32,000 nucleotides of DNA from an uncultured Chloroflexia bacterium (GCA_963704755.1 OY969938.1:2850001-2882000); one strand, 5' to 3'. Counted from the stretch's first letter, positions 2,778 to 28,038 are shown. Numbers and translations are program-made. Notes: generated by a model from the sequence alone, not told the origin.

Positions 2778-2809
2778 AAGTCTTTGGGTAACTCTTCAGG
2801 AATTAAAAG

Positions 2810-2994
2810 CCTGTAGCGTGTAGGTCGGGTTGCGGGTTCATCCGGTATGCTGTCGAATTACCGGTTTGTGTACCATACCGGGCTCTGCCCATAGCTCAAC
2901 ATCGGCAATTGCCGTCCAAGGGCCCTGGCCGGCGCCGCGAAGGCCTGGCGCCTCGCCCTCACCCAACCCCTCTCCCAGAAGCGGGAGAGGGGCT
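2810..2994 (-). repeat. R-family intergenic repeat, copy R1 (inverted orientation)
   Basis: The reverse complement begins agcccctctcccgcttctgggagaggggttgggtgagggcga and ends ...caacccgacctacacgctacagg. Same head and tail as the copies at 14579, 17257 and 17621. Confidence 0.7.
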
Positions 2995-3288
2995 AAGAGA
3001 CGCGACCAAGGTGTAGCGATTATCACGAGGGTCTGGCCTGCGCGTAACCAGTCCCTCAGCTTCCATCTGTTTTACGATGCGGGTTATCACCGGGCCTTCC
3101 ACGCCCAAGTGCTGTTGGAGGCTTGCCTGGCTTAACTCTTCCGAGAAGAGTGCGCGGATAATCTCCACGCGTGTCTGGCTCATACCGGTTGCTTCCACGA
3201 TCGATTGCATCATATCCCGGTAGAGGCGAATCAATGATGCTGTAAACAGTCTTTCTTCGTTTTCTATGATAGTTCGTCCTCTTGGCAA
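2959..3288 (-). CDS. MarR-family winged-helix regulator, 3-prime end replaced by repeat R1 (probably truncated)
   Basis: wHTH region SQASLQQHLGVEGPVITRIVKQMEAEGLVTRRPDPRDNRYTLV. The last ~14 codons (SLSPSPASGRGVG) are encoded by the R1 head hairpin. The C-terminal dimerisation helices expected in MarR are absent. Confidence 0.55.
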   Translation of the reverse strand: MPRGRTIIENEERLFTASLIRLYRDMMQSIVEATGMSQTRVEIIRALFSEELSQASLQQHLGVEGPVITRIVKQMEAEGLVTRRPDPRDNRYTLVASLSPSPASGRGVG

Positions 3289-3353
3289 AATTCGTGGCTG
3301 CTCAGGCTTCCGCGGGGGAGGCCTATCACGGCAGGCTGACCGGTTTATGAAAA

Positions 3354-3695
3354 TTAAGGAATGAGCAAGGCTCTTCCTACGACTTGCTGAGCTTCAACGG
3401 CCTGATGTGCTTTTGCAGCCTCCGCTAATGAATAAGTATAGTCTGTTTTGACCGAAAGCTTTCCTTGTTCAACCCATGAAGTAAAGGCCTGAAAATATTC
3501 CGGCATCTTACTATTGAATTGAGACTTCAATAGTAACTGCTCAGCCCAGCGGGGATGAAACCCGAATTTGATGTGCGTGCGGGGGCGAAGCCCCCGCACG
3601 CACATCAAATTCGGGAACTTCTTAACAGGAGCCTGAGTAGTTACCTTCAATATAGTCTTTGTCCTAACACCAAACTGGCATGCTAAGGTGAACAC
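3354..3695 (-). pseudogene. 3-prime remnant of an MDR-type quinone oxidoreductase/alcohol dehydrogenase, interrupted by element E1
   Basis: The C-terminal ...FQAFTSWVEQGKLSVKTDYTYSLAEAAKAHQAVEAQQVVGRALLIP matches the typical MDR C-terminus. No N-terminal catalytic or Rossmann part is present. 40 codons in the middle are element E1 plus one target repeat. Confidence 0.45.
3533..3644. mobile_element. E-family nested-palindrome MITE-like element E1 (112 bp)
   Basis: Termini GTAACTGCTCAG / CTGAGTAGTTAC. Flanked by a perfect 8-bp direct repeat CTTCAATA (3525-3532 and 3645-3652). Apical 25-bp perfect stem 3561-3585/3591-3615 with loop CGAAG. Confidence 0.7.
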
Positions 3696-7100: not shown

Positions 7101-7195
7101 GGATCTTGCTGGACGGCCTGGTTGAGCAAGCTGCGTGCCATGGTTTTGTCCCCAGCTTTAAGCGCCTGAATACCTTTATTGGTTAACTCATCCAT
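4151..7195 (-). CDS. TPR / UvrD-PcrA-type SF1 helicase / Cas4-AddB-like PD-(D/E)XK nuclease fusion protein
   Basis: 1014 aa. N-terminal TPR-like ~75 aa. Walker A AGPGSGKT. Motif II LILVDEYQDTN. C-terminal nuclease: LQCPLRY (Cys1), GKIDLV, EIVDFKT, QLSIYA, and terminal CAQCQEFNQVCPY (a 4-Cys cluster pattern). Confidence 0.85.
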   Translation of the reverse strand: MDELTNKGIQALKAGDKTMARSLLNQAVQQDPHNIQAWLWLSGAVDTDPERVVCIRKVLALDPDNPAAHKGLDSLLPGLLEEILTGLKPPQREAVLHQGGPLMIIAGPGSGKTEVIARRVAYLVRSGQAQPGQVLAVTFTEKAALELKDRIQKKLPEVNVEAMQVSTVHAFCANLLRRYAAQSALPHGYRILDQNGQFLQVYSNRKAFGLDTIVKGRPQDFFNAVLRTFNLATEELVEPDRLEEWCQKSQSNCDAKEIDLWKEKEVVAEAYRLYCRHLLDHSLVDFAFLQRHALDLLEKNPAIVADLRRQYPLILVDEYQDTNAAQERIIRLLAGDGCALTVVGDDDQGIYRFRGATVKNLYDFGDHYANVHQVTLVDNFRSYTPVVRHSLEVIAHNNPARFEKDLVSYRGPGNDIFLVYEHSAPEEAAAVARMLGRLRASGRIHQYGEVVVLLRSVKNYAEAYQTALNDEGIPNQVLGDATLFDKDEIAQLYDLFNFLGSSKEWGDKYVRDPLVGLSETACDALKAHKGNLLEISDEAGWREIGIREPADLRRLQRLLALKRKVQAQEHGSALGVFYELLSITGCLGRFEMVEKRTALSNLGIFSQLVAAWDEFGSTRNFYPFREYLDLMRQGGVDAAVPEIDDCVRIMTIHQAKGLQFPVVVLGAAMSGRLPSTRRKDPYEIPYDLRASGKPEVDDPHLVDERKLFYVAATRAQDLLIVSTADVVNKRGGGPSPFVHEMFGDDLQGAAEFSEEKVKEIESRAAGREQGPRPRYSYSQLAYYLQCPLRYKYSVVYGLAVPWLDPVNYGANVHRCLEAIHRRALQGDSTTVEDLPALVDANWLLPAQATAKLEQKFKKYAIQHLSCYLQEYGPRLAETVQAETPFSAAFGEQVLQGKIDLVRRDGEERLEIVDFKTSRSTPKEIDQAKLQLSIYAIGVENDLERPVARTTVHFLGDDRAESWDWDPQQKSGAAAQLEDLFARIAGEDFPPNRSYCAQCQEFNQVCPYSEGTPSP

Positions 7196-7280
7196 AATGC
7201 AACCCCTGAACTCTTTCCGCGGCGCGCCTGGAATGGGGTTTGTCGCGCGAAGCCATTTTATCCCCCGGTTTCTTTATGTC

Positions 7281-8109: not shown

Positions 8110-8221
8110 GTATTTGCTCAGTCTAATGGATAAGAGATACGAAATTGGAGTGTTCGCGGGAGCCTCGCCCCCGTCAACACTCCAATTTCAAGACCTTCTT
8201 GATATTTGTCTGAGTTGTTAC
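8110..8221. mobile_element. E-family element E2 (112 bp)
   Basis: Termini GTATTTGCTCAG / CTGAGTTGTTAC. 14-bp perfect stem gaaattggagtgtt (8141-8154) / aacactccaatttc (8176-8189). The 21-nt apex resembles a decayed E1 apex (gcggg.gc...gcccccg). Confidence 0.6.
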
Positions 8222-8249: not shown

Positions 8250-8969
8250 ATGGCGCGCACTATCAAGGAAGAGGAATATCAGGCCAGGCGGAACGAAATC
8301 CTGGACTTCGCCCTACGCTTGATTTACACCAAGGGTTACGAAAAAATGACCATTCAGGACATCCTGAATGGTCTGCAAATTTCCAGGGGAGCCCTGTACC
8401 ATTATTTCAATTCAAAAAAGGCGCTGCTCGAGGCCCTGGTGGACCGCATGGGACAGACTGCGCAGCAGAGCGTCCTTCCTATCATACAGGACCCGGACCT
8501 GTCTGCCCTGCAAAAATTCCAACGCTATTTTGAAATCTCGGCCAACTGGAAAAGCTTGCAAAAGGAGTTTATTTTGACCCTTTTGCCAATGTGGTTCAGC
8601 GACGAAAATGCCTTTATCCGCCAGAAAATGACCAGTGAAACGCTGGCCCACACCTCGCCATTGCTCGAGGCTATGATCCGCCAGGGCGTTGAGGAAAAGG
8701 TTTTCACCACCCGTTACCCGCAGCAGTCGGCGGTGATTATCGCCGGGATCTTTCTCACCTTTGCGGAGGTAATCGTTGGACGGCTGCTCGCCCCACAACC
8801 GGATGGGGCCGGCTCGGGCGACCTCCAAAATACCCTGAACGCCTATTCCGACGCCATCGAGAGGATACTCGGAGCCCCCGCGGGCTCACTCAAATTCTTT
8901 GAGGTTGCCGATTTCCAGGGTTGGCTGGTCGCCTCTGCGCCGGAACCCGGGCAGGCAAGTGGCTTCTAG
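8250..8969 (+). CDS. TetR/AcrR-family transcriptional regulator
   Basis: N-terminal HTH: YEKMTIQDILNGLQISRGALYHYFNSKKALLEALV. 239 aa. Confidence 0.85.
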   Translation: MARTIKEEEYQARRNEILDFALRLIYTKGYEKMTIQDILNGLQISRGALYHYFNSKKALLEALVDRMGQTAQQSVLPIIQDPDLSALQKFQRYFEISANWKSLQKEFILTLLPMWFSDENAFIRQKMTSETLAHTSPLLEAMIRQGVEEKVFTTRYPQQSAVIIAGIFLTFAEVIVGRLLAPQPDGAGSGDLQNTLNAYSDAIERILGAPAGSLKFFEVADFQGWLVASAPEPGQASGF

Positions 8970-8987
8970 CGATTAGCTGTTAGCTTT
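8967..8987 (+). repeat. TAGCNNN heptamer array (3 units) starting at the TetR stop codon
   Basis: TAGCGAT TAGCTGT TAGCTTT. TAG at 8967, 8974 and 8981, one in each frame. Confidence 0.6.
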
Positions 8988-9042
8988 CAGGATACGGTCG
9001 GGGCATGGCTTGATTGGTCCGGCGGTATCCAAAAGGCGAAAG

Positions 9043-9099
9043 GTACTACTCATATCCCTGAAAAAAATCAGTTTTTCCTTCGTTAGGCTGAGCAGTTAC
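9043..9099. mobile_element. E-family short form E3 (57 bp, no long apical hairpin)
   Basis: Termini GTACTACTCAT / CTGAGCAGTTAC. The right inner spacer ccttcgttagg resembles cttcttaacagg of E1. Only a 4-bp ctga/tcag mini-hairpin lies inside. Confidence 0.45.
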
Positions 9100-9127
9100 C
9101 AACGAAAAGTGGTTTTTGGACAGACCA

Positions 9128-11476
9128 CTAGCGAGTTATGATGGGGATATAAATATCATAGCTTGGGGGTGGGGTTGGCGGCGGGGTGGGGATGGAGCTG
9201 GGCGACCAATCGAATTCGACGTAATCGAAATCGGCCTGGAGTGGGTTGTTCTGCCACTCATTAATCAGGTGAACGCCGGTGTACACGGTGCTGGCCGCAT
9301 TAAAGCGGATGCTTCCTGCTAGAAGCCAATCATTATTATCGCGGCTGTACCAGGCACTAAAGTTTTGATTGCTGCGCACGATTTTCAGGTACACGTCCTG
9401 GGCGTTCAAGGGAAGGTTCCCCAGGTCGGTATAGTTGCCATTCACGCTGTAGATGAACCGTAAATCGCCGCCGGTCTTTAGCTCCAGGCGGATATAGTTA
9501 TCGTCGTCCTGCCAGACCAGCAAGCCGGCGCCCTGATACTCTTGCGCCACCGGTAAAAGGTGAACATGGGTCGATACCAGAAATGTCTTCCCGACCGGCT
9601 GCAGGAGGCGAGGAGCATTTTTGTTGGAATACAAATCGTGACCGCCGGTGTAGGTCATCAGGCGTAATGAGCCGGGGTCGGCGGTCAAACTGTAGTTCGA
9701 GTCGGCCTGGGGGTCGGTCCATGACCAGCGCAGGTCGAGCATTTCGGCATCGAAGGTATCATTGAAACCGGACGGATACCAGGCAGCGCTCCATAAGGTC
9801 AGGTAAACCAGGTCGTCGTTTTCGAAAGTCTCGGCCCAACTATTATATTGGCGATCCAGGTATTCATAGGTCACTCTTAATCCCAACTGGCTCAAATATT
9901 TGGGGACCATGCCGGTCTGGGCATTCTGAGGGATGGCCAGTTGAACCAGGTAGCCGGTGCCATAGCTGCGGGCATAACGGCCAATGTCGTCTGTTACAAG
10001 CAGCCGCTCGAAGGGATAATTGGAATCATCATCCCACATCGGGTATCCTTTTGCGGCAATCATAGCTTCGCTGCTATCCCAGATACGCGCCTTGCCTACG
10101 ATAGATGGATCGTTGGGGTTGGAATAACTTGGGTCGATTGCCACCTCATAATTATCGCTACCGTGAAACCATCCATCCGCGTTGGCATCGATCTTGAAGT
10201 GTATGCTTGCATATCGATCGACGATAAACATCAGGTAGAAGAAATTGCTATCCCAATTGGCGTAGATTGTGGCGTTGAGCGGTGCGCTGGACGTATTCGT
10301 TTCGTCGGTGAGCACGTCCCAGTCATCCGGGTTGCCGTCGAGTGCGTGGGTTTTTTCGGGTATCTGAGTGTTGACGGCGTACAAAGGTTCGGCATCATTG
10401 CTGTCTAAGGCAAAATCCCCATCTAAATCAACCTCATTCAAGCCGGTATTCTTGAAAAAGCCAGACATAATTTCGTTCAGGTCCGAAAACCCATCTCCTT
10501 CCGAATCGTTGGAAGCCGTTGAACTGCCGAGAGCCTCTTCTGTAATCGGCAACATACCCTCGTCGGGTACGCCATCTCCATCTGCGTCCGGGGCTTCCTG
10601 AATATTCCCCCAGGGAGCGCGAAGCACCAGCCAGTCGTTCAGCGGCCAAATTCTCATTTCGTATACCCAGTAGCTCCAATCCTCTCCAAACCTGCCGGGA
10701 TAATCCCAAGGACGGTCCGCGTGGAAATAATCCGGGTAGCCGCTGCTATCCAGCATGAAATCAATGGTATGCTGCATTTCATGAGGAAAAGCCGTCGAAA
10801 ATTGTGGGGTGCCTGAGGCCTGGAAAATCGGGTTCTCGGTGATCCCCGTCGTTCCCAGTTGCCAGGCAATAAGCCCGCCGAGCCCGCCATAAGCGGCGGG
10901 CAATGTGTAATTGTTATGAGCCCACAGATAGTTAATGCTATCGTACTGGTCTCTCAGCACCCCACGGTTCAAAAGATCCATTTCGACCGAGATTCCATCG
11001 TTGTCGTTGTCGACTGGATTGAGCCAGTAGCCTCCATTTTCCAGCTGGTTGAACTCACTGATATCTTTGTAGTCGTCGATAACCAGGATCGTCAGGTCGA
11101 TATAGAACTTGAGGCTAGACTGGCGCCATACGAAAGTGGCTGTATCGTGAATGTGCTGTTCGATAAGGCTGACATCGGTGGAATTTAGGGTGCCGGCAGC
11201 CGTGTCCGGGTAAATCACCACCAGCGTTTCTAGCCTGGTATAGGCCGTGTTTCCACTGCTCACCAGGTAAGCAGACTGAGGCGCCTGCAGAGGTGGAAAC
11301 AAAGCGGTGTTCTGGATTTGGGTAAATCCCTGGGGCTGCTCCAGGGGGGAGTCATAGACTGCGTAGATGTAGGGTGGTTCAACGTTCGAGGCGACTACGT
11401 TTTTGGCCGGCGCAAATTGAAAACCGGCTAACAGGCTGAGTGCAAGAACAAAGTGAAGGCATTTGGGCAGTGACAT
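9128..11476 (-). CDS. Secreted multidomain protein: HExxH metallopeptidase-like region, TSP3-type Ca-binding repeats, CBM9/DOMON-like region, ConA/LamG-like C-terminal domain
   Basis: Signal peptide MSLPKCLHFVLALSLLAGFQFAPA. FPHEMQHTIDF. DADGDGVPDE, DSEGDGFSDLNE and DLDGDFALDSNDAEP. C-terminal LamG-like block (GAGLLVWQDDDNYIRLEL...). ATG 11476 is preferred (AAGGAG 7 nt upstream) over TTG 11500. Confidence 0.7.
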   Translation of the reverse strand: MSLPKCLHFVLALSLLAGFQFAPAKNVVASNVEPPYIYAVYDSPLEQPQGFTQIQNTALFPPLQAPQSAYLVSSGNTAYTRLETLVVIYPDTAAGTLNSTDVSLIEQHIHDTATFVWRQSSLKFYIDLTILVIDDYKDISEFNQLENGGYWLNPVDNDNDGISVEMDLLNRGVLRDQYDSINYLWAHNNYTLPAAYGGLGGLIAWQLGTTGITENPIFQASGTPQFSTAFPHEMQHTIDFMLDSSGYPDYFHADRPWDYPGRFGEDWSYWVYEMRIWPLNDWLVLRAPWGNIQEAPDADGDGVPDEGMLPITEEALGSSTASNDSEGDGFSDLNEIMSGFFKNTGLNEVDLDGDFALDSNDAEPLYAVNTQIPEKTHALDGNPDDWDVLTDETNTSSAPLNATIYANWDSNFFYLMFIVDRYASIHFKIDANADGWFHGSDNYEVAIDPSYSNPNDPSIVGKARIWDSSEAMIAAKGYPMWDDDSNYPFERLLVTDDIGRYARSYGTGYLVQLAIPQNAQTGMVPKYLSQLGLRVTYEYLDRQYNSWAETFENDDLVYLTLWSAAWYPSGFNDTFDAEMLDLRWSWTDPQADSNYSLTADPGSLRLMTYTGGHDLYSNKNAPRLLQPVGKTFLVSTHVHLLPVAQEYQGAGLLVWQDDDNYIRLELKTGGDLRFIYSVNGNYTDLGNLPLNAQDVYLKIVRSNQNFSAWYSRDNNDWLLAGSIRFNAASTVYTGVHLINEWQNNPLQADFDYVEFDWSPSSIPTPPPTPPPSYDIYIPIITR

Positions 11477-11691
11477 CCTGGTGCTCCTTAGCCGAGACAA
11501 AACACCAATTCATTGGCTGGTTGTGAAACGATTGATTTGTATGAATCGATTCACTGAAATCTTGTGCGACGAAGGATATATAAATGCAAGATCACAACGC
11601 CGCGTTTAATTCAGGCTTCGGTATTGCAAAACCCCGCTAAGAAAATCCAACCTGTAATTTAAAAAGGAGATCTTTCCCCGCTGAATAATTT

Positions 11692-11816
11692 TAATTATAA
11701 CGTGAATTTGGGATAAAAGAAAAGAGAGGTAATTTGAGTGTGTTTTTATTCGCGGCGCAGCCGCCACGAATAAAAACACACTCAAAAACTCTTATTCCGA
11801 ATCGACATTAATTATA
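11692..11816. repeat. E-like nested palindrome E4 (different outer arms)
   Basis: Perfect 20-bp stem tttgagtgtgtttttattcg (11733-11752) / cgaataaaaacacactcaaa (11767-11786) with an inner gcggc-gca-gccgc tip. Imperfect outer inverted repeat taattataacgtgaatttggg / ccgaatcgacattaattata. Confidence 0.5.
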
Positions 11817-11905
11817 GCTAAATTAAGGTTAAAAATCAATGTGCAAAGGTATTGAAAAACGTCCTGCGTTAAAACCAAATTCTTCACCTCAAAAGCCGGA
11901 AAGAT

Positions 11906-12112
11906 TCAACCGTTTGAAGAATAGGTATCGGCAAGAAAAAACGTTTTGCAGGAAGGAAATTCACTGCAAACCAGGTAATCTTCGCCAATGTGTTCTCCGC
12001 GAACAGCTCTACGCCGTTCGAGCGGCGCACCACATTTAGGACAGCGCATGTTTTCGGCCGGAATAGAAGGCTTATCTGGTTCTTTTTGTTCGCTCACATC
12101 TTCGTTATTCAA
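11906..12112 (-). CDS. Topoisomerase-type C4 zinc-finger ORF, in frame with the upstream NERD ORF
   Basis: CPKCGAPLERRRAVRGEHIGEDYLVCSEFPSCK is the zf-C4_Topoisom pattern. The frame is open all the way up to the TGA at 12203-12205 that ends the NERD ORF. Confidence 0.5.
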   Translation of the reverse strand: MNNEDVSEQKEPDKPSIPAENMRCPKCGAPLERRRAVRGEHIGEDYLVCSEFPSCKTFFLADTYSSNG

Positions 12113-12202
12113 CCGGGCGATGATCCGCCTCTGGTTTTCCCATATTTTGAGGTTGTTGTAGCTGCGCTGAACCGGCTTATGCAGAAAATTCAGCAGGAAC
12201 CT

Positions 12203-12823
12203 TCAATTCATTACCCGTACCCCCTTGATCGGCGGCCCATATTCTACAAAAGCGTTCGTAAACACAACGACAGGCGTGATCCAGGGGCTTAGACCCGTAA
12301 CAGCCTTGACTTGTTCTTTTACCCAATAAGAATTGCTCAAGGCTTGTTTTATAAAATCTTTTTCGGTCACCTGGCCGTTTAGCAGGATTTTGTTATCTTG
12401 TAAAGTTACTTTTCCCCAATGGGATTTGGTTTCGAGCAGGTAAATACCATTCTGTTGGCTGATAACCAGGTGATCGATATTTCCATGTGGGCTTTCGATA
12501 TCGTTGAGGACCACATAAGAATCGTCGAGGCCGTCCAACAGATTGTCCACCTGCTCTTCGGCTTTGGCGCCTCGCTCGGCGCGATAGACCGTTTTCATCT
12601 GCCGGCGAGAATGGTCATCGGCGAGTTTCAAAATATAAACTGCCAGAATAAACAAGCCGAAATACCACCCGACGGGAATAGCAAGCTTTGCTTGATTCAA
12701 TAGCAAAAACAAGATAATTAGTGCTATTCCGACGCCAAAGATTTCGATCCCGCAGCCCGACCAACGCCGTTTTTCGGCCATTTTGTAGGTTGAGTATCCG
12801 GCTGATCCATATTTCTTGGCCAT
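12203..12823 (-). CDS. NERD (nuclease-related domain) protein with two N-terminal TM helices
   Basis: RGAKAEEQVDNLL...VLNDIESPHGNIDHLVISQQNGIYLLETKSHWG is the canonical NERD core. AT-rich relative to its neighbours. Confidence 0.75.
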   Translation of the reverse strand: MAKKYGSAGYSTYKMAEKRRWSGCGIEIFGVGIALIILFLLLNQAKLAIPVGWYFGLFILAVYILKLADDHSRRQMKTVYRAERGAKAEEQVDNLLDGLDDSYVVLNDIESPHGNIDHLVISQQNGIYLLETKSHWGKVTLQDNKILLNGQVTEKDFIKQALSNSYWVKEQVKAVTGLSPWITPVVVFTNAFVEYGPPIKGVRVMN

Positions 12824-12894
12824 ACCTTACATCATATTCATTTTGAATTTGGGCTTCTATAAAAATTGTTTGCACCTGCATTACAATGCTTTGA

Positions 12895-13002
12895 GTTACC
12901 CCTCAGACTAGTTCGGAAATTAGGGGTGTTTTATTGTTTTTCGCGTGCTTCGCACGCGAAAAACAATAAAACACCCCTCTTTGGGGTTAGCAGAGTAGTT
13001 AC
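12895..13002. mobile_element. E-family element E5 (108 bp, opposite orientation)
   Basis: Termini GTTACCCCTCAG / CAGAGTAGTTAC. Perfect 26-bp stem 12922-12947/12953-12978. Loop CTTCG, the reverse complement of the CGAAG loop of E1 and E8. Confidence 0.6.
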
Positions 13003-13085
13003 GCTTAGGAAACAAAAAGTGCGGTTTAATCGTCCTATAGTTGTATTCCGAAAATTTTAAAATGATGTATTAATGGAGACAAACA

Positions 13086-14222
13086 TTGACTGTAAACCAT
13101 AAATTCCTGTCTTTATTCGTGACAATGAGCTTATTGTTGGTCTTGATGGCCGCCTGTGCGGCCCAGCCCCAGGCAACTGGGACAACTTTACCGGCCACCC
13201 AACCGCCTGCGGATACTACCCAGCCCACAACCTTGCCGGCTCCGGCCGCCACGGCTACCAGCATTCCCGGACTCAGCGAGGATGTCTTGAAAAATGCGAC
13301 CTACGCTTCTCTGGATGCCGAATCACCGGAATACCAGGGCGGCGGCACGATGCAACTGGTGGATGGCGGCTATACCATCAAGGACCCCAGCGGCACTCTG
13401 CCCGATTACCAGGTGACCTACCTGCAAAGCGCCTCCGGTGACCTGAACGGCGACGGCGTGCCGGATGCAGTGGTGGTCCTGGCGGCCAACCCGGGCGGCT
13501 CGGGCACTTTTGTATACCTGCTGCCGGCTATCAACCAGGACGGCAAAGTGGAAAATACCAGCAGCACCTTCCTGGGCGACCGGGTCCAGATCCAAAGCCT
13601 GACCATCGCGGATGGCGCCGTCCACCTGGACATGCTGGTCGCCGGCCCGGATGACCCCCTGTGCTGCCCGTCTCAGCCCGCCAGCCAGACCTACGTCCTC
13701 AAGGACGGCCGATTGCTGACCCAGGCGGAGGCCGCGGTAGCGCCTTTGGCCGATCAGGCGGTGACTGCCTTGAAGAATCAGGATATGGCTGCCCTGGCCC
13801 AGTTGGTTCAGCCGGACGCCGGCCTGCGCTTTTCGCCCTACGCCAACGTAAACCAGAGCGACCTGGCCTTCACCCCCGCTCAACTCCAGGGTCTGTTGAG
13901 CGATCCGACCGTATACGCCTGGGGCGCCTATGACGGCTCGGGGGAACCGATCGCGCTGGCCTTCAGTGATTACTTTACTAAATTTGTGTACAGTGGCGAT
14001 TTTGCCTCGGCCGCCCAGGTCAGTTTTGACCACCCGCTCGGCAGCGGCAACACCATCGACAACAGCCAGGAGTTTTACCCGGGCGCCGTGATCGTCGAGT
14101 ATTACCTGCCCGGCACCGCCGCCAACGGCTACATGGATTGGCAGAGCCTGCGCCTGGTTTTCAGCCAGCAAGGCGAGAACTGGTATCTGGCCGGCATCAT
14201 CCACGCCCAATGGACGGTTTAG
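13086..14222 (+). CDS. Lipoprotein of unknown function
   Basis: TTG start 7 nt after GGAG. Signal peptide with lipobox LVLMAAC. Thr/Pro-rich linker. GDLNGDGVPDAVVV (FG-GAP/VCBS-like motif). Confidence 0.65.
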   Translation: MTVNHKFLSLFVTMSLLLVLMAACAAQPQATGTTLPATQPPADTTQPTTLPAPAATATSIPGLSEDVLKNATYASLDAESPEYQGGGTMQLVDGGYTIKDPSGTLPDYQVTYLQSASGDLNGDGVPDAVVVLAANPGGSGTFVYLLPAINQDGKVENTSSTFLGDRVQIQSLTIADGAVHLDMLVAGPDDPLCCPSQPASQTYVLKDGRLLTQAEAAVAPLADQAVTALKNQDMAALAQLVQPDAGLRFSPYANVNQSDLAFTPAQLQGLLSDPTVYAWGAYDGSGEPIALAFSDYFTKFVYSGDFASAAQVSFDHPLGSGNTIDNSQEFYPGAVIVEYYLPGTAANGYMDWQSLRLVFSQQGENWYLAGIIHAQWTV

Positions 14223-14232
14223 AAGTGATATA

Positions 14233-14275
14233 GCCCCGGCGGAACAATTACGTTACGTAATTGTTCCGCCGGGGC
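14233..14275 (+). terminator. Perfect ~20-bp hairpin downstream of the lipoprotein gene
   Basis: gccccggcggaacaattacg tta cgtaattgttccgccggggc, 10 nt after the stop codon. No clear T-tract. Confidence 0.55.
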
Positions 14276-14282
14276 CATTCTT

Positions 14283-14325
14283 AGCCCCTCTCCCGTTTCT
14301 GGGAGAGGGGTTGGGGTGAGGGCGA
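14283..14325 (+). repeat. R-family repeat, head-only copy R2
   Basis: agcccctctcccgtttctgggagaggggttggggtgagggcga. 10-bp stem cccctctccc/gggagagggg. Confidence 0.65.
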
Positions 14326-14353
14326 GCACCCGGGCCGTACAAGCGGCTGACAA

Positions 14354-14396
14354 AAAGATGTAGCCCGGCTTTCAAAGCTGGGGGGTAGCTGAGGCT
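14354..14396 (+). repeat. S-family repeat copy S1
   Basis: aaagatgtagcccggctttcaaagctggggggtagctgaggct, near-identical to 17501-17543. 8-bp hairpin cccggctt/aagctggg with one G-T pair. Confidence 0.6.
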
Positions 14397-14578
14397 GCGG
14401 GGTGGAAAGAATCTGGCTCTTCCCTCCAAATCGGTTTTTGATTTGGGGGGAAGCGGGGAAGGGGGGCAAAGAGCCGGACGAACACGCCCGTGGGCTGGCT
14501 GATCAGCGCTCTTTGCCTCCTCCTAACCTCCCCCAAAATCCAAAGTGCGGATTTTAGGGGAGGAATAAGGCCGTCTTG

Positions 14579-14724
14579 GCCCCTCTCCCGTTTCTGGGAG
14601 AGGGGTTGGGGAGAGGGCGACCCCCCCGGCCGCACAAGCCCTGTTGGGTTACGGGCAAAGCCCGGTAAAACGGAAGCCTTTCCATACGCTGGCGTAATCA
14701 AAGAGCCCGCAACCCAACCTACGA
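14579..14724 (+). repeat. R-family repeat copy R3
   Basis: Head ggcccctctcccgtttctgggagaggggttggggagagggcga. Internal gggttacgggcaa. Tail gcccgcaacccaacctacgag. Confidence 0.65.
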
Positions 14725-14770
14725 GCTAATCGCTAAAAGCTAACAGCTACCCGCTACCCGCTACCCGCTA
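14719..14770 (-). repeat. TAGCNNN heptamer array (8 TAGs at 7-nt period, minus-strand sense) starting at the oxidoreductase stop codon
   Basis: Minus-strand reading: TAGCGGG x3, TAGCTGT, TAGCTTT, TAGCGAT, TAGCTCG, TAGG. The first TAG (14768-14770) is the stop codon of the gene. Confidence 0.7.
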
Positions 14771-16147
14771 CCCGCCCTCCCCAAGCTGATCGAACAGCGC
14801 GAAAAACCCTTCGCTCAAGGTGGGGTGGATGAAGATGCTCTTGTAGAAAGTGGTCCAGGGGGCCTTGGCCAGCATCAGGGCCATCAGGCTGTGGACCAGC
14901 TCGCCGCCGTCCACGCCTAAAATAGCGGCACCGATGATCTGGTTCGTCTCGGTGTCGATGATGATCTTCATCAGCCCGGCGGTCTGGCCGCGCTCGATGG
15001 CGCGGGCCACATAGCTCATCGGGATCTTGCCGACGCGGTACTTAATGCCCGCCGCGGCTGCCTGCCGCTCGGTCAGCCCCACCCGGCCTAACTCCGGGTC
15101 GGTGTACAGGCAATAAGGTACCTGGCGGTCGTGGGTAGAGCGCTTTTGCGGGTTGAACAGGTTGTTGTACACGATCAGAAAATCGTCGTAGGAGATGTGG
15201 GTAAAAGCCGGCCCGCCGTTGACGTCGCCCAGCGCGTAGATACCCGGCACGTTGGTCTCCAGGTACTCGTTGACCGGGATCCAGCCGCGTTTGGTTTCAA
15301 TGCCGGCCTGCTCGGGATTAAGCGCGGCTGTGTTGGGCACCCGGCCGGTGGCCAGCAGCAGGTGGCTGCCGGTAATCTGCAGCTCGCTGCCCCCGTTCAG
15401 GTCCTTGATCGTCACCCGGATTTTCCCCGATTTGAGCTGGTCCACGCGGGTGGTCTCCACCTCGAGCAGGAACTCCATGCCCTCGTTTTCAAGGGCCTCG
15501 CGCAGAGAGGCGGCCACATCCTCATCCTCGCGCGGAACAATCTGGCTGTTCTTTTCGATGACGGTCACCTGGCTGCCGAAGCGCTGGAACATCTGGCCGA
15601 ACTCCAGGCCCACATAGCTGGCGCCCAAAATCAGCAGGTGCTCGGGCAGGACGGTCAGGTCCAGGATGCTGCGGTTGGTCAGGTAAGGCACTTCCTGGAT
15701 GCCCGTGATGGGCAGCACCGCGGCGCTGGCGCCGGTATTGATGAAGATCTTTTCGGCATGCAGCTCTTCGTCGTTGACCTTGACGGTATACGGCCCACTG
15801 AACGTCGCTTCGCCGTAGATCAGGCGAATGTTGGGCTCGGCTTTGACGCGCTCCTCCTGGCCATGGCGCCAGGACTGGACAATCTTATTCTTGCGCTCCA
15901 CGATCGCCGGCAGGTCCACCTGGAACGGATCGACATGGATGCCGAACTCGCCGGCCCGGCGGACGTACTGGGCCACGCTGGCGGATGCGACCATGGTTTT
16001 GGTGGGCGTACAGCCGTAATTGATACAGGTTCCGCCCAGGTACTCACGCTCAATCAGCGCGACCTGCCAGCCCTTTTGGGCCAGTTTTTGCGCTAGCGGC
16101 GATCCGGCCTGGCCGCCGCCGATAATCAATGCATCATAATTTTGCAT
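14768..16147 (-). CDS. Class-I pyridine nucleotide-disulfide oxidoreductase (dihydrolipoyl dehydrogenase / mercuric reductase-like family)
   Basis: FAD-binding fold YDALIIGGGQAGSPLA. Redox-active GGTCINYGCTPTK. C-terminal dimerisation domain with HPTLSE. ATG 16147 (AAGAGGGA upstream) is preferred over TTG 16168. Confidence 0.85.
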   Translation of the reverse strand: MQNYDALIIGGGQAGSPLAQKLAQKGWQVALIEREYLGGTCINYGCTPTKTMVASASVAQYVRRAGEFGIHVDPFQVDLPAIVERKNKIVQSWRHGQEERVKAEPNIRLIYGEATFSGPYTVKVNDEELHAEKIFINTGASAAVLPITGIQEVPYLTNRSILDLTVLPEHLLILGASYVGLEFGQMFQRFGSQVTVIEKNSQIVPREDEDVAASLREALENEGMEFLLEVETTRVDQLKSGKIRVTIKDLNGGSELQITGSHLLLATGRVPNTAALNPEQAGIETKRGWIPVNEYLETNVPGIYALGDVNGGPAFTHISYDDFLIVYNNLFNPQKRSTHDRQVPYCLYTDPELGRVGLTERQAAAAGIKYRVGKIPMSYVARAIERGQTAGLMKIIIDTETNQIIGAAILGVDGGELVHSLMALMLAKAPWTTFYKSIFIHPTLSEGFFALFDQLGEGG

Positions 16148-16200
16148 AATCCCTCTTTTCCGGGCCAACCCGGCCCGGGCAGGTGGTATCCATTTACAGG

Positions 16201-16305
16201 CTCCCTGAAGAAAATGTAAGGGAGAACTGCCCTATGTGTGGAGAGCAGAGAAGCTGCTCTCCACACATAGGGCGGCCTTCTTTGGGTTTCGGAGTATTTC
16301 AGGAG
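16201..16305. repeat. E-like nested palindrome E6
   Basis: Perfect 20-bp stem gccctatgtgtggagagcag (16229-16248) / ctgctctccacacatagggc (16254-16273). Loop AGAAG. Outer imperfect arms ctccctgaagaaaat / gtatttcaggag. Confidence 0.5.
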
Positions 16306-16336
16306 ACCCAATGATTATTATATTTTATACCTTATT

Positions 16337-16450
16337 GATAACCAAATGACCTGACGGGAAAGCCATTCCCGGACTTGAGGTGATTGCAGAGGCGAAGTAC
16401 CTGCAATCACCTCAAGTCCGGGAGCTCGCCACCATAAGCCTGAGTAGTAC
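16337..16450. mobile_element. E-family element E7 (left terminus decayed)
   Basis: Right terminus CTGAGTAGTAC (16440-16450). Perfect 22-bp stem 16368-16389/16401-16422. Loop aggcgaagtac contains GCGAAG. The stem is homologous to that of E8. Confidence 0.5.
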
Positions 16451-16501
16451 CAAAAGTCTTTTTCTCACCGGCCGGAGCAGTTACAATAAATCTCGTAGCC
16501 T

Positions 16502-17203
16502 ATGGAAGAAAATTACCGTATCTTACTGATCGAAGACAATTCCGCCGTGGCGCGCAGCCTGTTGGACGGCCTGGAGCGCGAAGGTTTCGAGACCGTCTGG
16601 AAGCCCACCGGCCACGAGGGCCTGGAGGCCGCAGCGACCGGGCGGGTCCACCTGGTGTTGTTAGACGTGCGCTTGCCGGACGGCTCCGGATTCGACGTGT
16701 GCCGCGAGCTGCGCCTGCGCGGAATGCACCAGCCGGTTATTATTTTGACCGTGCAGCAGGACGAGATCGACAAGGTGCTTGGGTTGGAGATCGGCGCGGA
16801 CGATTACGTGACCAAGCCCTTCGGTTTGCGTGAGCTGCTCTCGCGCATCCGTGCCCAGTTGCGCCGGGCCTACGGCGAGTTTGCCGGGGCCGGCAGCCAG
16901 GTCACCCTGGTCGGCGACCTGGTGGTGGACTATACCCGCAGCCAGGTACTGCGCGACGACCGCCCGATCAACCTCAGCCCGACCGAGTTCCGCCTGTTCA
17001 CCTTCCTGGTCCGCGAGCGCGGGCGGGCAGTGACCCGCAGCCAGATCATCGAAGCCGTGTGGGGCTATGCCGCTGATCTGGAGAGCGAGCGGGCCGTCAA
17101 CGTGCACATCCGCCGCCTGCGCGAGAAAGTCGAGCCAGACCCGGCCTCCCCGACCCTGATTTTGACGGTGCCGGGAGTCGGCTATCGCCTGGCCGGCCGC
17201 TAG
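16502..17203 (+). CDS. OmpR/PhoB-family response regulator
   Basis: Receiver domain (LLIEDN...LVLLDVRLPDGSG...KP). Winged-helix output domain (LSPTEFRLFTFL...VPGVGYRL). Confidence 0.9.
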   Translation: MEENYRILLIEDNSAVARSLLDGLEREGFETVWKPTGHEGLEAAATGRVHLVLLDVRLPDGSGFDVCRELRLRGMHQPVIILTVQQDEIDKVLGLEIGADDYVTKPFGLRELLSRIRAQLRRAYGEFAGAGSQVTLVGDLVVDYTRSQVLRDDRPINLSPTEFRLFTFLVRERGRAVTRSQIIEAVWGYAADLESERAVNVHIRRLREKVEPDPASPTLILTVPGVGYRLAGR

Positions 17204-17219
17204 GGGGAAAGGCTGCGCT

Positions 17220-17247
17220 TAGCGGTTAGCTTTTAGCGGTTAGCCTA
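17220..17247 (+). repeat. TAGCNNN heptamer array (4 units), 17 nt after the response-regulator stop
   Basis: TAGCGGT TAGCTTT TAGCGGT TAGCCTA. TAG at 17220, 17227, 17234 and 17241. Confidence 0.65.
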
Positions 17248-17256
17248 CGGGTCGTG

Positions 17257-17448
17257 AGCCACTCTCTCGTTTCTGGGAGAGGGGTTGGGGTGAGGGCGAA
17301 GCTCTGGGCTTTCACGGCGCCGGCCGGGAAAGAGCCCTAATCTACCGTTTGGTGATATTTGCGAACGGTGGGTTACGGGCAGGGCCGGGACCTCGCGCCG
17401 GCTTGTGATACACCGGCGTGATCAATGGGCCCTCCACCCACCTTACAG
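17257..17448 (+). repeat. R-family repeat copy R4 (~190 bp)
   Basis: Head agccactctctcgtttctgggagaggggttggggtgagggcga (left stem arm decayed) ... ggtgggttacgggca ... tail cccaccttacag. Collinear with R5 over its whole length. Confidence 0.7.
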
Positions 17449-17500
17449 TTGGCCGGGGATTAAGGGGGTGACAAACCTTGTGGCAGGTGCTTTCTGACTT

Positions 17501-17543
17501 AAAGATGTAGCCCGGCTTTCTAAGCCGGGGGGTAGCTGAGGCT
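17501..17543 (+). repeat. S-family repeat copy S2
   Basis: aaagatgtagcccggctttctaagccggggggtagctgaggct. Hairpin cccggctt/aagccggg. Confidence 0.6.
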
Positions 17544-17620
17544 ATAGGGGAGGAATCGGCTCAGACCCAGTCCATAAAGGGTCGAAAGTAGGTGAAATCA
17601 CATCCCGGATCGCCTTTCTA

Positions 17621-17812
17621 AGCCCCTCTCCCGCTTCTGGGAGAGGGGTTGGGGTGAGGGCGAAGCCCTGGGCTATCACGGCGCCGGCCGGGAAAGAGCC
17701 CTAATCCACCGTTTGGTGGTATTGGGAATGGTGGGTTACGGGCAAGGTTGGGGATGTCAAGCCGGCCGGTGATCCGCCGGCGCTATCGACGAGCCCTGCA
17801 CCCACCCTACAG
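17621..17812 (+). repeat. R-family repeat copy R5 (~190 bp)
   Basis: Head agcccctctcccgcttctgggagaggggttggggtgagggcga. Tail gcacccaccctacag, running directly into the heptamer array. Confidence 0.7.
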
Positions 17813-17844
17813 GCTAACAGCTAACAGCTAACAGCTACCCGCTA
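17807..17844 (-). repeat. TAGCNNN heptamer array (6 TAGs, minus-strand sense) starting at the comEC stop codon
   Basis: Minus-strand reading: TAGCGGG, TAGCTGT x3, TAGCCTG, TAGG. The first TAG (17842-17844) is the comEC stop. Confidence 0.7.
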
Positions 17845-20124
17845 CCGCTGGCCGGCAATGATCCACATTTGTCCCCCATCGCTGACTACCTCGATACGCC
17901 CGAGCGCGGCGGTCGATAGCCAGTTCTGCGGCAGCGCCTGGGCGGGCTGCCCGCTGACCAGCACGGCCAGGGGGCGCATGCGCTGCCAATCCACGAGGGC
18001 CCTCTCCCGGAGCTGATCGGCATCCAGGACCAGTATGCAGCCGTCCGCTTTGACTGCGCCAGGCGGCAGGTCGCCTGGCCAGACCAGGCACAGGTTGCCA
18101 TAATCCAGGCGATAGGCGGCCAGCGATTTGCCGGAGCCGATCACCCGCACCTTCACCCCCTCGTCCACCTGCAAGGCGTCGCCGGGGGCCAGCGCCAGCG
18201 GAAGCGCACCCAGCCGGCCGGCAGCTTCCTGTAACCGCTCGGCCGCGGCTTTGTCCGGTGGGGGTAAGGCCCAAAAAACCTGGTCGGCCGGGGTGCGTTC
18301 GATCAGCCCGGCCAGGCTTTGCAGGTCATCGGCGGAAGTACTGGTGATCAGCAAACCATCCAGGCGGCGATCGACCAGGCTCATCTCGCGGCCCAGGGCG
18401 GAAGAAAGGGCATTGGCTCCGCCGGCCCCACCCAGCAGGAGTTGGTTGCCGCCCGGGGTGGTCAACAGCGCGGCCGGCGAGCCGGCCAGATCGAACAGGG
18501 CCAGGTGCAGGCGTCCATCCGGGCGGTGCAAAGCCACGTTCCAGGCCAATAAAGTGACCAACCCCAGGCCGGTCAGCACCGCAGCCGGTTTGATGCGGCT
18601 GCTCACGGCCGCCAGCCAGGATTTGGCCGTCATCAGGCCGCCCAAAACCAGGTAATAGCCGGCGGCGAACCAGCCACTGACCGTGCCGATACTCACTGCC
18701 CCACCGGGAATACGGGCGCACCATTCCACCGCGCGGATGGTATAGGCGGTCAATGGCCAGGACAGCGCCTGGCCCAGTGTGGTCGAAAAAGACCCTACCA
18801 GCAGGGCGGCCCCGCCCAATTCCATCACCAGCGGCTGGACGGGCAGCACCAACGGGTTGGCGAGCAGCATGCTGAAGGAAAGCCGGCCAAAATGGACCAG
18901 CGTGACCGGCAGGGTGGTCACCTGGGCGGCCAGGGTAAACAGGACGTTTTCACCCACCGGCCCGGCCAGCCGGTGGGCTGCCTTGGGTGAGAGCCAGTGG
19001 GCCGCCAGGCGCTCGAAGCCGGATTGCAGCGGATCGGCAAACCAGACCAGGCCCAGGGTGGCGGTGAACGAAAGCTGGAAGCTGACGTCCCACAGCAGCC
19101 AGGGATTGAAGATGCACATCAGCATGGCGCTGCCGGCCAGGGGCGTCGTCCCGGCCGAGGATCTCCCGATCAGGCGCCCAAAGACGGCCAGCCCGCTCAT
19201 AATAGCGGCTCGCACCACGGCCGGGTTGGCCCCCACCAGCACTGTGTAGGTAGCAATGGCCAAAACGGCCAGCAAGGCCGTCCAGCCGCGCGGGAAAAAA
19301 CGGCCGAAGAAGCCTACAAAAAGCGCGCACAACACGCTCATGTTGAATCCGGAAATGGCGATGATGTGGGCCGTACCGGTATCCTGGAAGGCTTTCTCCA
19401 GGCTCTCCGGCAAATCATTTTCCAGCCCAAGCAGGATGCCGGAGAGCAAACCGGCCTCAGGTTGGGGCAGCATGGTCGTGATGCGCCGGTACGCGGCCTG
19501 GCGCAGCCCATAAATGGCGGCCATGACCCGGCTGCCGGACGTGCCTTCCAGCCGGTGGGTGGAGGGATATAACAGGTAGGTGTAAACCCCATGCTGGGCC
19601 AGGTAATCCTGGTAGGAAAAATCTTCGCCGGAAGGTGGGGTCACCGGTTTGCCCCACAGGCGGATGCGCTGGCCGTACTGCCAGTTACCGCCGGGGGAAA
19701 GGCGCACCAGCGCCACCCCTTCGACCGGGATCACCCGCCCGGTGCTTTCCAGGGTGATCGATTCGACCCGGACTCGCAGTTGCACAGCGTTTTCGCGCCG
19801 GTCCGGGTCGGCGGCGATCCAGCCGATCAGCTCGGCCTGTCCGGAATCGTTGTAATAGGCCAGGTCGGATGGGCCCCAATTTGGCTGGGCATGCTGCCAG
19901 CACAGTGCCCCTGCGAACAGTGCCGCCAGCAATACCCCCACCGCCAGCGGAATTTTAGCCCTCAGGATCCGGTAGCGGGCAAAACGGCCGGCCCAGAATC
20001 GTTCGCCCAACGCCAGGGCCAGGCTCAACCCGGCCAGCAGCAGCCAGGCGGACAGCGGCAGGCGCGTGAATGCCCCCAGCCCGATCCCTGCCAGGAAGGC
20101 CAGCGAAAACCACAGCAGCGGCAC
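17842..20124 (-). CDS. comEC: DNA internalisation competence protein ComEC/Rec2
   Basis: 760 aa. N-terminal DUF4131-like TM/OB region, polytopic competence domain (HIIAISGFNMSVL...), C-terminal metallo-beta-lactamase-like region. Confidence 0.85.
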   Translation of the reverse strand: MPLLWFSLAFLAGIGLGAFTRLPLSAWLLLAGLSLALALGERFWAGRFARYRILRAKIPLAVGVLLAALFAGALCWQHAQPNWGPSDLAYYNDSGQAELIGWIAADPDRRENAVQLRVRVESITLESTGRVIPVEGVALVRLSPGGNWQYGQRIRLWGKPVTPPSGEDFSYQDYLAQHGVYTYLLYPSTHRLEGTSGSRVMAAIYGLRQAAYRRITTMLPQPEAGLLSGILLGLENDLPESLEKAFQDTGTAHIIAISGFNMSVLCALFVGFFGRFFPRGWTALLAVLAIATYTVLVGANPAVVRAAIMSGLAVFGRLIGRSSAGTTPLAGSAMLMCIFNPWLLWDVSFQLSFTATLGLVWFADPLQSGFERLAAHWLSPKAAHRLAGPVGENVLFTLAAQVTTLPVTLVHFGRLSFSMLLANPLVLPVQPLVMELGGAALLVGSFSTTLGQALSWPLTAYTIRAVEWCARIPGGAVSIGTVSGWFAAGYYLVLGGLMTAKSWLAAVSSRIKPAAVLTGLGLVTLLAWNVALHRPDGRLHLALFDLAGSPAALLTTPGGNQLLLGGAGGANALSSALGREMSLVDRRLDGLLITSTSADDLQSLAGLIERTPADQVFWALPPPDKAAAERLQEAAGRLGALPLALAPGDALQVDEGVKVRVIGSGKSLAAYRLDYGNLCLVWPGDLPPGAVKADGCILVLDADQLRERALVDWQRMRPLAVLVSGQPAQALPQNWLSTAALGRIEVVSDGGQMWIIAGQR

Positions 20125-27786: not shown

Positions 27787-27886
27787 ATCAGGCGCTTTCC
27801 AGGGGAATTTTCAATAATTATATTGCCATTCGGGCCTGATATTGACCACAGATGGACACAGATGCACACAGATAAAAACTTTTTTT

Positions 27887-27998
27887 GTAACTACTCAGTC
27901 AGACAAGAAAGAGCCCTGAAGTTGAGGTATTTGTGCAAACGAAGCTTGCACAAATACCTCAACTTCAGGGACTTTTTATCTAGAGTCTGAGTAGCTAC
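27887..27998. mobile_element. E-family element E8 (112 bp)
   Basis: Termini GTAACTACTCAG / CTGAGTAGCTAC. Perfect 25-bp stem 27914-27938/27946-27970. Loop aCGAAGc. Confidence 0.7.
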
Positions 27999-28038
27999 CT
28001 TTGATTTTTTTTGTACCTAACGAAAAAAACAGAAGAAA

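Follow-up and report, generated by a model that had tools for sequence, protein, structure and literature searches.

Introduction

Tandem repeats with a unit of seven nucleotides are over-represented in the intergenic DNA of bacteria, an observation that dates back to 1990-2007 and is still unexplained. Heptanucleotides are the commonest class of long simple sequence repeats (SSRs) in bacteria and have been attributed to polymerase slippage (Mrazek et al. 2007, as cited in PMC4679880). Here, we analysed a stretch of 32,000 nucleotides (nt) from an uncultured Chloroflexia bacterium (GCA_963704755.1, OY969938.1:2850001-2882000), referred to as the window, in which four arrays of TAGCNNN heptamers lie at the 3' ends of genes. 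These arrays belong to a widespread family of TTAGCNN heptads, which is characterized by a fixed polarity at gene borders and by an architecture of convergent pairs. They are probably local copies of this polar heptad satellite, and the stop codons that they place in all three reading frames are then a by-product. TTAGCNN thereby adds a degenerate, cross-phylum unit to the known but unexplained intergenic heptanucleotide repeats.

GGGAATC repeats of Xanthomonas and GGGGA(C/T)T repeats of Nostoc consist of about four units and are found in intergenic regions, 0-50 bp from the open reading frame (ORF) on their 5' side and irrespective of the orientation of that ORF (Rehm et al. 2015, PMC4692102). 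Downstream of genes they lie on the coding strand, including overlaps with the stop codon, and upstream of genes on the non-coding strand; they form inverted pairs, are less frequent than expected between divergent genes, and no function is known for them (PMC4692102). TTAGCNN heptads share with them the intergenic 7-nt unit, the polar proximity to the ORF on the 5' side, the overlap with stops and the inverted pairs. The units described by Rehm et al., however, are G-rich, nearly invariant, G-quadruplex-forming, stop-free (inspection of GGGAATC repeats by eye revealed no stop codon in any frame) and limited to two genera. In contrast, the TTAGCNN unit is T-rich and leaves two to three positions free; stops are present on both of its strands, and it is found in a range of phyla as well as in phage-like contigs.

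TAACTGA heptamers of Beggiatoaceae, cyanobacteria and Bacteroidetes occur in several phyla as sets of 2-6 units, sometimes together with related heptamers; 13-14 sets overlap the stop codon of the upstream ORF, and the stops in all three forward frames were noted as a constraint on placement (MacGregor 2015, PMC4679880). An earlier note on the window, made from the sequence alone, knew of no description of orientation-matched heptamer stops in three frames. This is too strongly put, since three-frame stops in forward-oriented heptamers were noted by MacGregor and the heptamers of Rehm et al. hug or overlap stops on the coding strand (PMC4692102). Like TTAGCNN, TAACTGA is an intergenic heptamer with three-frame stops that overlaps ORF ends and occurs in several phyla, and the GCTAA strand of the metagenome loci described below resembles it in lying 0-25 nt upstream of starts. 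The TAACTGA unit is fixed and mostly found directly in front of start codons, in the sense of the gene that follows, whereas none of the four window arrays precedes a start. Convergent pairs are not a feature of TAACTGA (one inverted repeat in 170 sets), unlike TTAGCNN.

The short tandemly repeated repetitive (STRR) heptamers of heterocystous cyanobacteria have the units CCCCAGT, TTGGTCA and CAACAGT. STRR repeats and long SSRs are, like the window arrays, tandem, intergenic and over-represented heptanucleotides for which an origin by slippage was proposed (as cited in PMC4679880 and PMC4692102). The unit of the window arrays is TTAGCNN, and their host is a relative of Chloroflexota, not a cyanobacterium. 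They are tandem, with at least three units above chance, and located in non-coding DNA; their units are degenerate, in contrast to the identical units of true SSRs.

REP, BIME and REPIN elements resemble heptad pairs as small intergenic inverted pairs, often at gene 3' ends, that are insertion targets of mobile DNA (Tobes and Pareja 2006, cited in PMC3116915). Heptad pairs, too, seem to have received mobile DNA, namely an R-D8-R block in the window and an insert of 24-26 nt elsewhere. While REPs are imperfect hairpins of about 35 nt mobilised by RAYT transposases, heptad arms show no selected hairpin and have no known link to a transposase.

Heptad arrays in the window

The heptads of the window are arranged as follows, where R denotes a dispersed repeat described further below:

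8967-8987, plus strand: array 1, TAGCGAT TAGCTGT TAGCTTT; a solo arm with no R element near; its first TAG is the stop codon of the TetR gene
8960-8966, plus strand: degenerate unit TGGCTTC, directly 5' of array 1
14719-14770, minus strand: array 2, TAGCGGG three times, TAGCTGT, TAGCTTT, TAGCGAT, TAGCTCG, TAG(G); its first TAG is the stop codon of the oxidoreductase gene, its distal end leads into an R tail
17220-17247, plus strand: array 3, TAGCGGT TAGCTTT TAGCGGT TAGCCTA; after the response regulator gene
17807-17844, minus strand: array 4, TAGCGGG, TAGCTGT three times, TAGCCTG, TAG(G); its first TAG is the stop codon of the ComEC gene
2807-2827, plus strand: three heptad-like units, AAGCCTG TAGCGTG TAGGTCG, in the tail of an inverted R copy (R1)

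The four arrays stand where the earlier note had placed them, and they are not random. TAGCNNNTAGC was matched 15 times in the window, compared to 0.43 matches expected from dinucleotide-preserving shuffles, and a three-unit pattern with at most one mismatch 14 times, compared to 0.09. A looser scan of the window yielded no further array besides the three-unit stretch at 2807-2827. This stretch contains the TAG units (2814, 2821) that had been pointed out in the R1 tail, and it lies about 90 nt 3' of the plus-strand gene 1980-2717, past the hairpin of that gene.

In each of the four arrays TAG closes all three sense frames, as had been predicted for consecutive units; this is simple arithmetic for a 7-nt unit that contains TAG. 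On the opposite strand, arrays 2-4 close three of three frames with TAA and array 1 closes two of three, because most window units read TTAGCNN and the complement contains TAA. TTAGCNN, with TAG on one strand and TAA on the other, is therefore the better notation for the unit. All four arrays are intergenic and located between convergent genes.

Further support for the arrays is provided by an independent Logan assembly (ERR11571143), in which a 1.9-kb contig carries the same oxidoreductase end followed by three TAGCGGG units and TAGC. Since this assembly contains the start of array 2, the arrays are not an assembly artefact. The short-read contig breaks off inside array 2, and such arrays may thus break assemblies. 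Rfam gave no match in the window at gathering scores, a promoter and terminator scan of the window revealed nothing specific to the arrays, and exact-protein look-ups with the response regulator and the TetR protein found no match on record.

A TTAGCNN family in metagenome and viral contigs

Scanning IMG/VR for four TAGCNNN units yielded at least 119 loci, and a seeded metagenome scan yielded at least 120 loci (615 kb). Among the matches listed, the 120 metagenome loci contain 202 arrays of at least three units, in DNA with a G+C content of 0.33-0.74. The unit was derived from neighbour units on which the search had not selected (126 seeds in the 120 metagenome loci). Here, the base frequencies were T.60, A.75, G.84 and C.77, followed by two variable positions and T.83, so that the family unit has five constrained and two free positions. 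Conservation of the C in TAGC and of the flanking T equals that of the stop itself.

Called ORFs contain only 3 of the 202 metagenome arrays. The proteins encoded on metagenome contigs with arrays are ordinary chromosomal ones (AcrB, MacB/FtsX, DnaX, GatB, ABC transporters and a SusC-like TonB receptor), and few of ten other proteins from such contigs match phage families. One contig was assigned to the Pyrinomonadaceae (Acidobacteriota) by DnaX similarity. The TTAGC core thus recurs in Chloroflexota, in Acidobacteriota, in a contig with a SusC-like receptor and in phage-like contigs. All units were distinct in 31% of the TAGC arrays with 4-6 units, compared to 11% of TGAC controls. Long homogeneous arrays, of 18 and 22 units, exist as well. 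That the TAGC core is special by its abundance was considered and ruled out by counts of IMG/VR arrays with at least seven units; long arrays are mostly homogeneous SSRs.

A synthetic array used as BLAST query had no match among annotated phages, probably due to low-complexity filtering, and a literature string search for array sequences matched only primers and no paper containing them. In some phage-like contigs of IMG/VR, for example L101 (3951-10513), heptad arms flank G+C-rich hairpins (ggcgcgcc...) in nearly every intergenic region, and such contigs contain at least 8 arrays per 12 kb.

Polarity at gene borders and convergent pairs

The earlier note had claimed that the arrays follow genes in the sense of the incoming gene, which is true for 4 of 4 window arrays. 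The same bias was found in the metagenome loci. Counts at 3' ends were 43:8 (p = 7e-7) for arrays directed away from the nearest gene compared to those directed towards it, and 43:18 in IMG/VR. Arrays at 5' starts behave in the same way, with 36:6 in the metagenome (p = 3e-6) and 32:7 in IMG/VR. Overall, about five in six arrays (~85%) are directed away from the gene next to them. For convergent intergenic regions in the metagenome loci, the ratio of arrays in sense to arrays in antisense to the incoming gene was 18:2, and all four window arrays show the polar proximity to the ORF on the 5' side of the repeat. At the edges of an intergenic region, the TAG strand reads away from the adjacent gene, for 3' ends and 5' starts alike.

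Arrays on opposite strands less than 200 nt apart were convergent in 45 metagenome cases and divergent in 2 (p = 1.6e-11). IMG/VR pairs gave a ratio of 23:4, or 18:2 when overlapping palindromic arrays were excluded. The pairs have the form (TTAGCNN)n ... (NNGCTAA)n, and seven of them join exactly at the palindrome TTAGCTAA. By flanking genes, 30 pairs are located between co-directional, 7 between convergent and 2 between divergent genes. A TGAC core served as control in the same pipeline and gave 20:19 at 3' ends, 8:26 at 5' starts and 0:2 for pairs. Polarity and pairing are therefore not a product of the pipeline.

The possibility that convergent pairs are selected hairpins was rejected, as the mirrored free positions pair at chance level (16 of 42, compared to 16.8 expected).

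The window holds one split pair (arrays 3 and 4), one arm beside a repeat block (array 2) and one solo arm (array 1). Arrays 3 and 4 would be the left and right arms, respectively, of a single convergent pair between the response regulator and ComEC genes, pushed apart by the 555-nt R-D8-R block. Array 2 would represent a right arm abutted by a similar R/D8 block, and array 1 an arm that stands alone.

New with respect to the known heptamers are the degenerate unit with five constrained and two free positions, the 45:2 convergent rule and the recurrence in unrelated phyla and phage-like contigs. Together, unit, architectural rule and recurrence make the heptamer question experimentally tractable.

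Stop codons supplied by the arrays

The genes flanking the window arrays were established by ORF listing and Pfam:

8250-8969, plus strand: TetR-family gene; ends in array 1 with the stop 8967-8969
14768-16168, minus strand: pyridine-nucleotide disulphide oxidoreductase gene; ends in array 2 with the stop 14768-14770
16502-17203, plus strand: OmpR-type response regulator gene; has its own TAG at 17201-17203, upstream of array 3
17842-20124, minus strand: ComEC gene; ends in array 4 with the stop 17842-17844

In three of the four arrays (1, 2 and 4), the first TAG indeed doubles as the stop codon of the gene, as the earlier note had seen for TetR, oxidoreductase and ComEC. Its description of array 3 as following a separate TAG stop was right as well, but the gap between this stop and the array start at 17220 measures 16 nt and not 17. 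Association with stops was also evident in the metagenome loci, where 23 of the 58 sense arrays located within 40 nt of a stop donate it (40%). The donating unit was the first in 14 cases, the second in 8 and the third in 1 (p = 0.004). Stop-codon usage of array genes was compared with that of other genes. In the window, 4 of 8 TAG-ending ORFs have an array, compared to 0 of 19 ending in TAA or TGA; in the metagenome, genes with a separate stop before the array use TAG in 16 of 35 cases, compared to 113 of 395 (p = 0.05). Arrays that donate stops and sit directly before starts affect the calling of gene ends.

The C-terminus of the oxidoreductase exceeds that of most of nine inspected homologues by 2-3 residues, as would be expected if the array had extended to the end of the reading frame and now provided it. 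The nearest protein relatives of the window organism are Anaerolineae and Ardenticatenaceae, with at most 64% identity. In one family-level relative (L241-L244, locus ~11360-11420), the orthologous oxidoreductase ends in three copies of a 14-nt tandem repeat, GTGCAGTAGACATC. This repeat includes the TAG stop three times, again with TAG in all three frames, and the strains vary by point changes.

The earlier note had offered a fail-safe as one possible role: UAG in every frame behind a gene would catch readthrough or frameshifted ribosomes before they enter the repeat-rich spacer. The sense orientation and closure of all frames in 4 of 4 window arrays, the dominance of sense arrays in convergent metagenome regions (18:2), the stops donated by 40% of 3'-adjacent sense arrays and the somewhat higher use of TAG before arrays would all suit such a role. 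We nevertheless regard it as improbable. The reverse complement GCTAA provides TAA in all frames, so that either orientation would do, and yet orientation is strongly fixed. Polarity is the same at 5' starts, where there is no incoming gene, the majority of pairs lie between co-directional genes, and the stop-free GGGAATC family obeys the same rule. In a dnaX leader (L366, see below), the upstream glyoxalase gene takes its TAA stop from the first GCTAA-oriented unit, in an orientation opposite to the sense rule. The bases on either side of TAG, T in front and C behind, are as well conserved as the stop. Among the tetranucleotide stop contexts of E. coli, UAG-C is a weak termination signal, which does not favour the unit as a stop pad. 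Moreover, the next in-frame stop does not follow until 7 codons after the first, and arrays are present at only 4 of the ~24 window genes.

Because either strand closes the frames, 5' starts obey the polarity and GGGAATC follows the same rule without any stop, stops cannot set the orientation of the arrays. Slipped-strand mispairing would resize arrays in 7-nt steps. An array closed in all frames could then grow up to the end of an ORF, or a few codons into it, and donate the stop without harm. As closure of all frames lets arrays abut coding sequence, the stops are better understood as a permissive by-product than as a selected function.

Conservation and turnover of the arrays

On the GCTAA strand, metagenome arrays reach 0-25 nt before the ATG of large ORFs, often without a Shine-Dalgarno sequence. 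In the dnaX leader of Pyrinomonadaceae, four GCTAANN heptads fill the 31-nt spacer between the glyoxalase gene and dnaX up to 8 nt before the ATG; a Shine-Dalgarno sequence is absent. The loci are:

L337, L366 (9965-9982), L371, L367 and L370: dnaX-leader loci, upstream of dnaX

All four heptads are kept in three species, a fourth species has degenerate units, and a fifth has no array. The three conserved copies differ at 5 of 40 core positions and at 7 of 16 free positions (p = 0.026); the core accumulates changes more slowly than the two free positions do. No array substitution was found in contig pairs that are orthologous but diverged, where ~7.7 were expected by a rough, hand-derived estimate from flank divergence. 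Unit number differed in one of six related contig pairs (L097 versus L110), and the copies of one dispersed element of a low-G+C lineage have 4-6 units per arm. In these loci outside the window, arrays vary between copies and relatives in 7-nt steps.

Polar growth, with recent identical units nearer to one end, was tested as a model and rejected, since a count of 14:13 revealed no bias.

These data bear on whether the arrays are simply a neutral, slippage-prone heptanucleotide microsatellite, with polarity and core conservation resulting from selection filters or mutational bias. In such a model, slippage favours heptamer units, and arrays would survive only at harmless sites. In most bacterial genomes, no other class of long SSRs is as abundant as the heptanucleotides (Mrazek et al. 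2007, as cited in PMC4679880). The long homogeneous arrays of 18 and 22 units, the variable unit number, the equal frequency of long arrays with other cores and the family-level relatives without arrays would all be expected of such a satellite, as would the one relative in which the core has drifted and been homogenised to a new unit. However, known filters do not explain the exclusion of outward-pointing arrays at both gene ends, given stops on both strands. Neutrality also leaves unexplained why the TTAGC core recurs across Chloroflexota, Acidobacteriota, the contig with the SusC-like receptor and phage-like contigs, why it evolves more slowly than the free positions, why orthologous arrays keep their unit number and why, in diverged pairs, arrays outlast their flanks. 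Recent duplications show no polarity, contrary to a model of growth until blocked. We consider a purely neutral origin unlikely.

R and D8 repeats beside the arrays

Three of the four window arrays adjoin dispersed repeats. The features beside the arrays are:

2806-3005: R repeat, inverted
14279-14344: R repeat, truncated
14574-14720: R repeat
17257-17448: R repeat
17621-17812: R repeat
14347-14396 and 17494-17543, plus strand: D8 repeats; the order R-D8-R is found twice
14279-14718, plus strand: repeat block of truncated R, D8 and R, filling the remaining convergent intergenic region beside array 2
17252-17806, plus strand: R-D8-R block of 555 nt between arrays 3 and 4
17245-17251, plus strand: CTACGGG, left copy of a putative 7-bp target duplication, read from the sequence
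17807-17813, plus strand: CTACAGG, right copy of this putative duplication, likewise read from the sequence
8990-9031, plus strand: stem-loop 3 nt past array 1, GGAUAC.GGUCGG ... CCGGCG.GUAUCC; minimum free energy -32 kcal/mol, z = -3.0 (8960-9045)

R repeats are about 190 nt long and consist of a head hairpin (CCCCTCTCCCG..TGGGAGAGGGG) plus a long terminal stem. Arrays 2 and 4 are continuous with R tails, as the earlier note had described, and TAGCGGGTAGCTGTTAGC is common to both. Three of the four complete tails (CCTAC) lead into NN-GCTA heptads, and the head of an R repeat abuts array 3. Based on this proximity, the arrays might be an R tail expanded by slippage or carried along by R transposition, so that their gene context would merely mirror the landing sites of R. 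This is very improbable, since several observations disagree with it. Array 1 is free-standing, with no R near, and the tail at 17448 has no heptads. The exact 29-nt R-head motif also occurs in a Gammaproteobacteria metagenome-assembled genome (MAG), in Hydrococcus rivularis and in an Anaerolineae MAG, and in these three genomes no arrays were found near the motif. Conversely, among the matches listed, the R-head motif is absent from every metagenome or viral locus that has an array, and arrays are therefore independent of R outside the window genome. The earlier note had left room for arrays that occur only as parts of R tails, and this is not the case. Finally, the junctions resemble an insertion into a pre-existing pair.

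Indeed, the R-D8-R block may have inserted into the centre of a pre-existing pair formed by arrays 3 and 4. When the block and one flanking copy of the putative duplication are deleted in silico, the two arms meet in TAGCGGT TAGCCT-AC-AGGCTA ACAGCTA, a near-perfect palindromic junction. The analogy with the 24-26-nt insert found elsewhere points in the same direction. The idea that arrays are insertion targets of R elements, put forward in the earlier note, is thus favoured by the CTACGGG and CTACAGG flanks, by the restored palindrome TTAGCCT-AC-AGGCTAA and by the analogous small insert, and it is confined to a single junction pair. On the far side of block 14279-14718 there is no left-hand heptad arm.

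The analogous insert is a conserved sequence of 24-26 nt (TAAAAAATCAAACAGATAACACAT) between two heptad arms, with TTAGCT on either side, in a low-G+C lineage. It was found at several unrelated loci and in both orientations:

L290, ~5340-5430: TAAAAAATCAAACAGATAACACAT copy
L315, ~7137-7228: TAAAAAATCAAACAGATAACACAT copy
L340, ~1312-1400 and 3326-3410: TAAAAAATCAAACAGATAACACAT copies
L250, ~668-770: TAAAAAATCAAACAGATAACACAT copy

The sequence resembles a very small mobile element that inserts at the centre of heptad pairs, and arrays seem to be preferred landing sites of small mobile elements.

A stable stem-loop follows every window array within a few bases: for array 1 this is a separate hairpin, for arrays 2 and 4 the long terminal R stem, and for array 3 the R-head hairpin. 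A module of stop, array and hairpin as a general rule of gene 3' ends was not supported, as solo 3' arrays of the metagenome do not have stronger hairpins than other gene ends (p = 0.18).

Possible basis of the polarity

The window arrays are thus best explained as copies of a widespread, polar TTAGCNN satellite whose three-frame stops are a by-product, and we hold this to be probably correct. Most of our confidence comes from the family assignment and from the by-product interpretation of the stops. Several points weigh against this explanation. The window provides a sample of four arrays from one strain. The metagenome scan was seeded with TAGCGGK TAGCTKT TAGC, which is one flavour of array, and gene contexts outside the window were obtained with a simple longest-ORF caller and a filter on G+C content at third codon positions, which is crude. 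With respect to IMG/VR arrays of at least seven units, TAGC (69 stretches) is not commoner than other cores (TGAC 100, TACG 16, ATGC 65). In two family-level relatives, the oxidoreductase locus lacks TAGC arrays, which are therefore not conserved at that distance. In the fourth dnaX-leader relative the core has drifted to GCCGA and GCTGA, so that the constraint on the core is not absolute. Hairpins are not enriched after solo 3' arrays of the metagenome in general, and the putative target duplication is known from one junction pair.

Since the polarity is symmetric for both gene ends and both strands, it is explained more parsimoniously by a constraint on DNA or transcription than by one on translation, and it most likely reflects the former, acting at gene borders. 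That the satellite itself constitutes a polar gene-border element acting on DNA or transcription is a guess, which we offer tentatively. Anything that leaves a gene would read UUAGC repeats, and anything that enters one would read GCUAA repeats. A conserved, polar cis-acting border signal shared across phyla, read by RNA polymerase and a general factor or by a common nucleic-acid-binding protein, appears rather unlikely. If it existed, inward-facing arms at both ends of an intergenic region would insulate genes by acting on polymerase that leaves a gene on either strand, and both the stop codons and the insertion of small mobile elements into the arrays would be secondary effects.

Heptads could also be bound by a dedicated protein. 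The omega repressor of plasmid pSM19035 reads contiguous 7-bp heptads in DNA, and HutP reads UAG triplets at 7-nt spacing in RNA; a ribbon-helix-helix protein of the former kind or a ring of the latter would be conceivable models. TTAGCNN arrays match the omega operators in their contiguous 7-bp direct or converging sites, which is a resemblance only; the window arrays lie at 3' ends. Similarly, the spacing of HutP-type UAG-N4 sites matches the window arrays, whereas the 3'-end context does not. Five fixed and two free positions per unit, a core conserved relative to the free positions, and contiguous heptads in direct and converging arrangement with diverging pairs avoided are what a binding site might look like. 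Likewise, the mirrored free positions are not complementary, so that base pairing between arms is not what is conserved. On the other hand, no candidate protein was identified, though no search aimed at a HutP homologue was made, a single specificity across distant phyla and phages would require a very widespread factor, close relatives have no arrays, and a position flush against stops or starts is not typical of operators. Taken together, a dedicated heptad-binding protein strikes us as improbable.

Other repeats in the window

Three further repeat structures were noticed in the window. The first is a family of four elements, each with a near-perfect hairpin of ~55 nt and a tail ending in CTGAGTAG(T/C):

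3561-3641, plus strand: four-element family
8138-8218, plus strand: four-element family
16368-16448, plus strand: four-element family
27915-27995, plus strand: four-element family

Among the four copies, 12 of 25 stem pairs show compensatory changes, and the family has no Rfam match. The start codons of the TetR and response regulator genes are each preceded by a copy at a distance of 30-55 nt.

The second consists of 40-nt inverted repeats (27837-27876 and 28101-28140) made of 10-nt tandem units (CACAGATGNA), which flank a 77-nt near-perfect palindrome at 28027-28103. This structure may represent either a small mobile element or a palindrome with a regulatory role. Thirdly, repeats with periods of 27 nt and 108 nt at 29995-30370 lie inside a long minus-strand ORF (29948-31909) and probably encode a repetitive protein domain.

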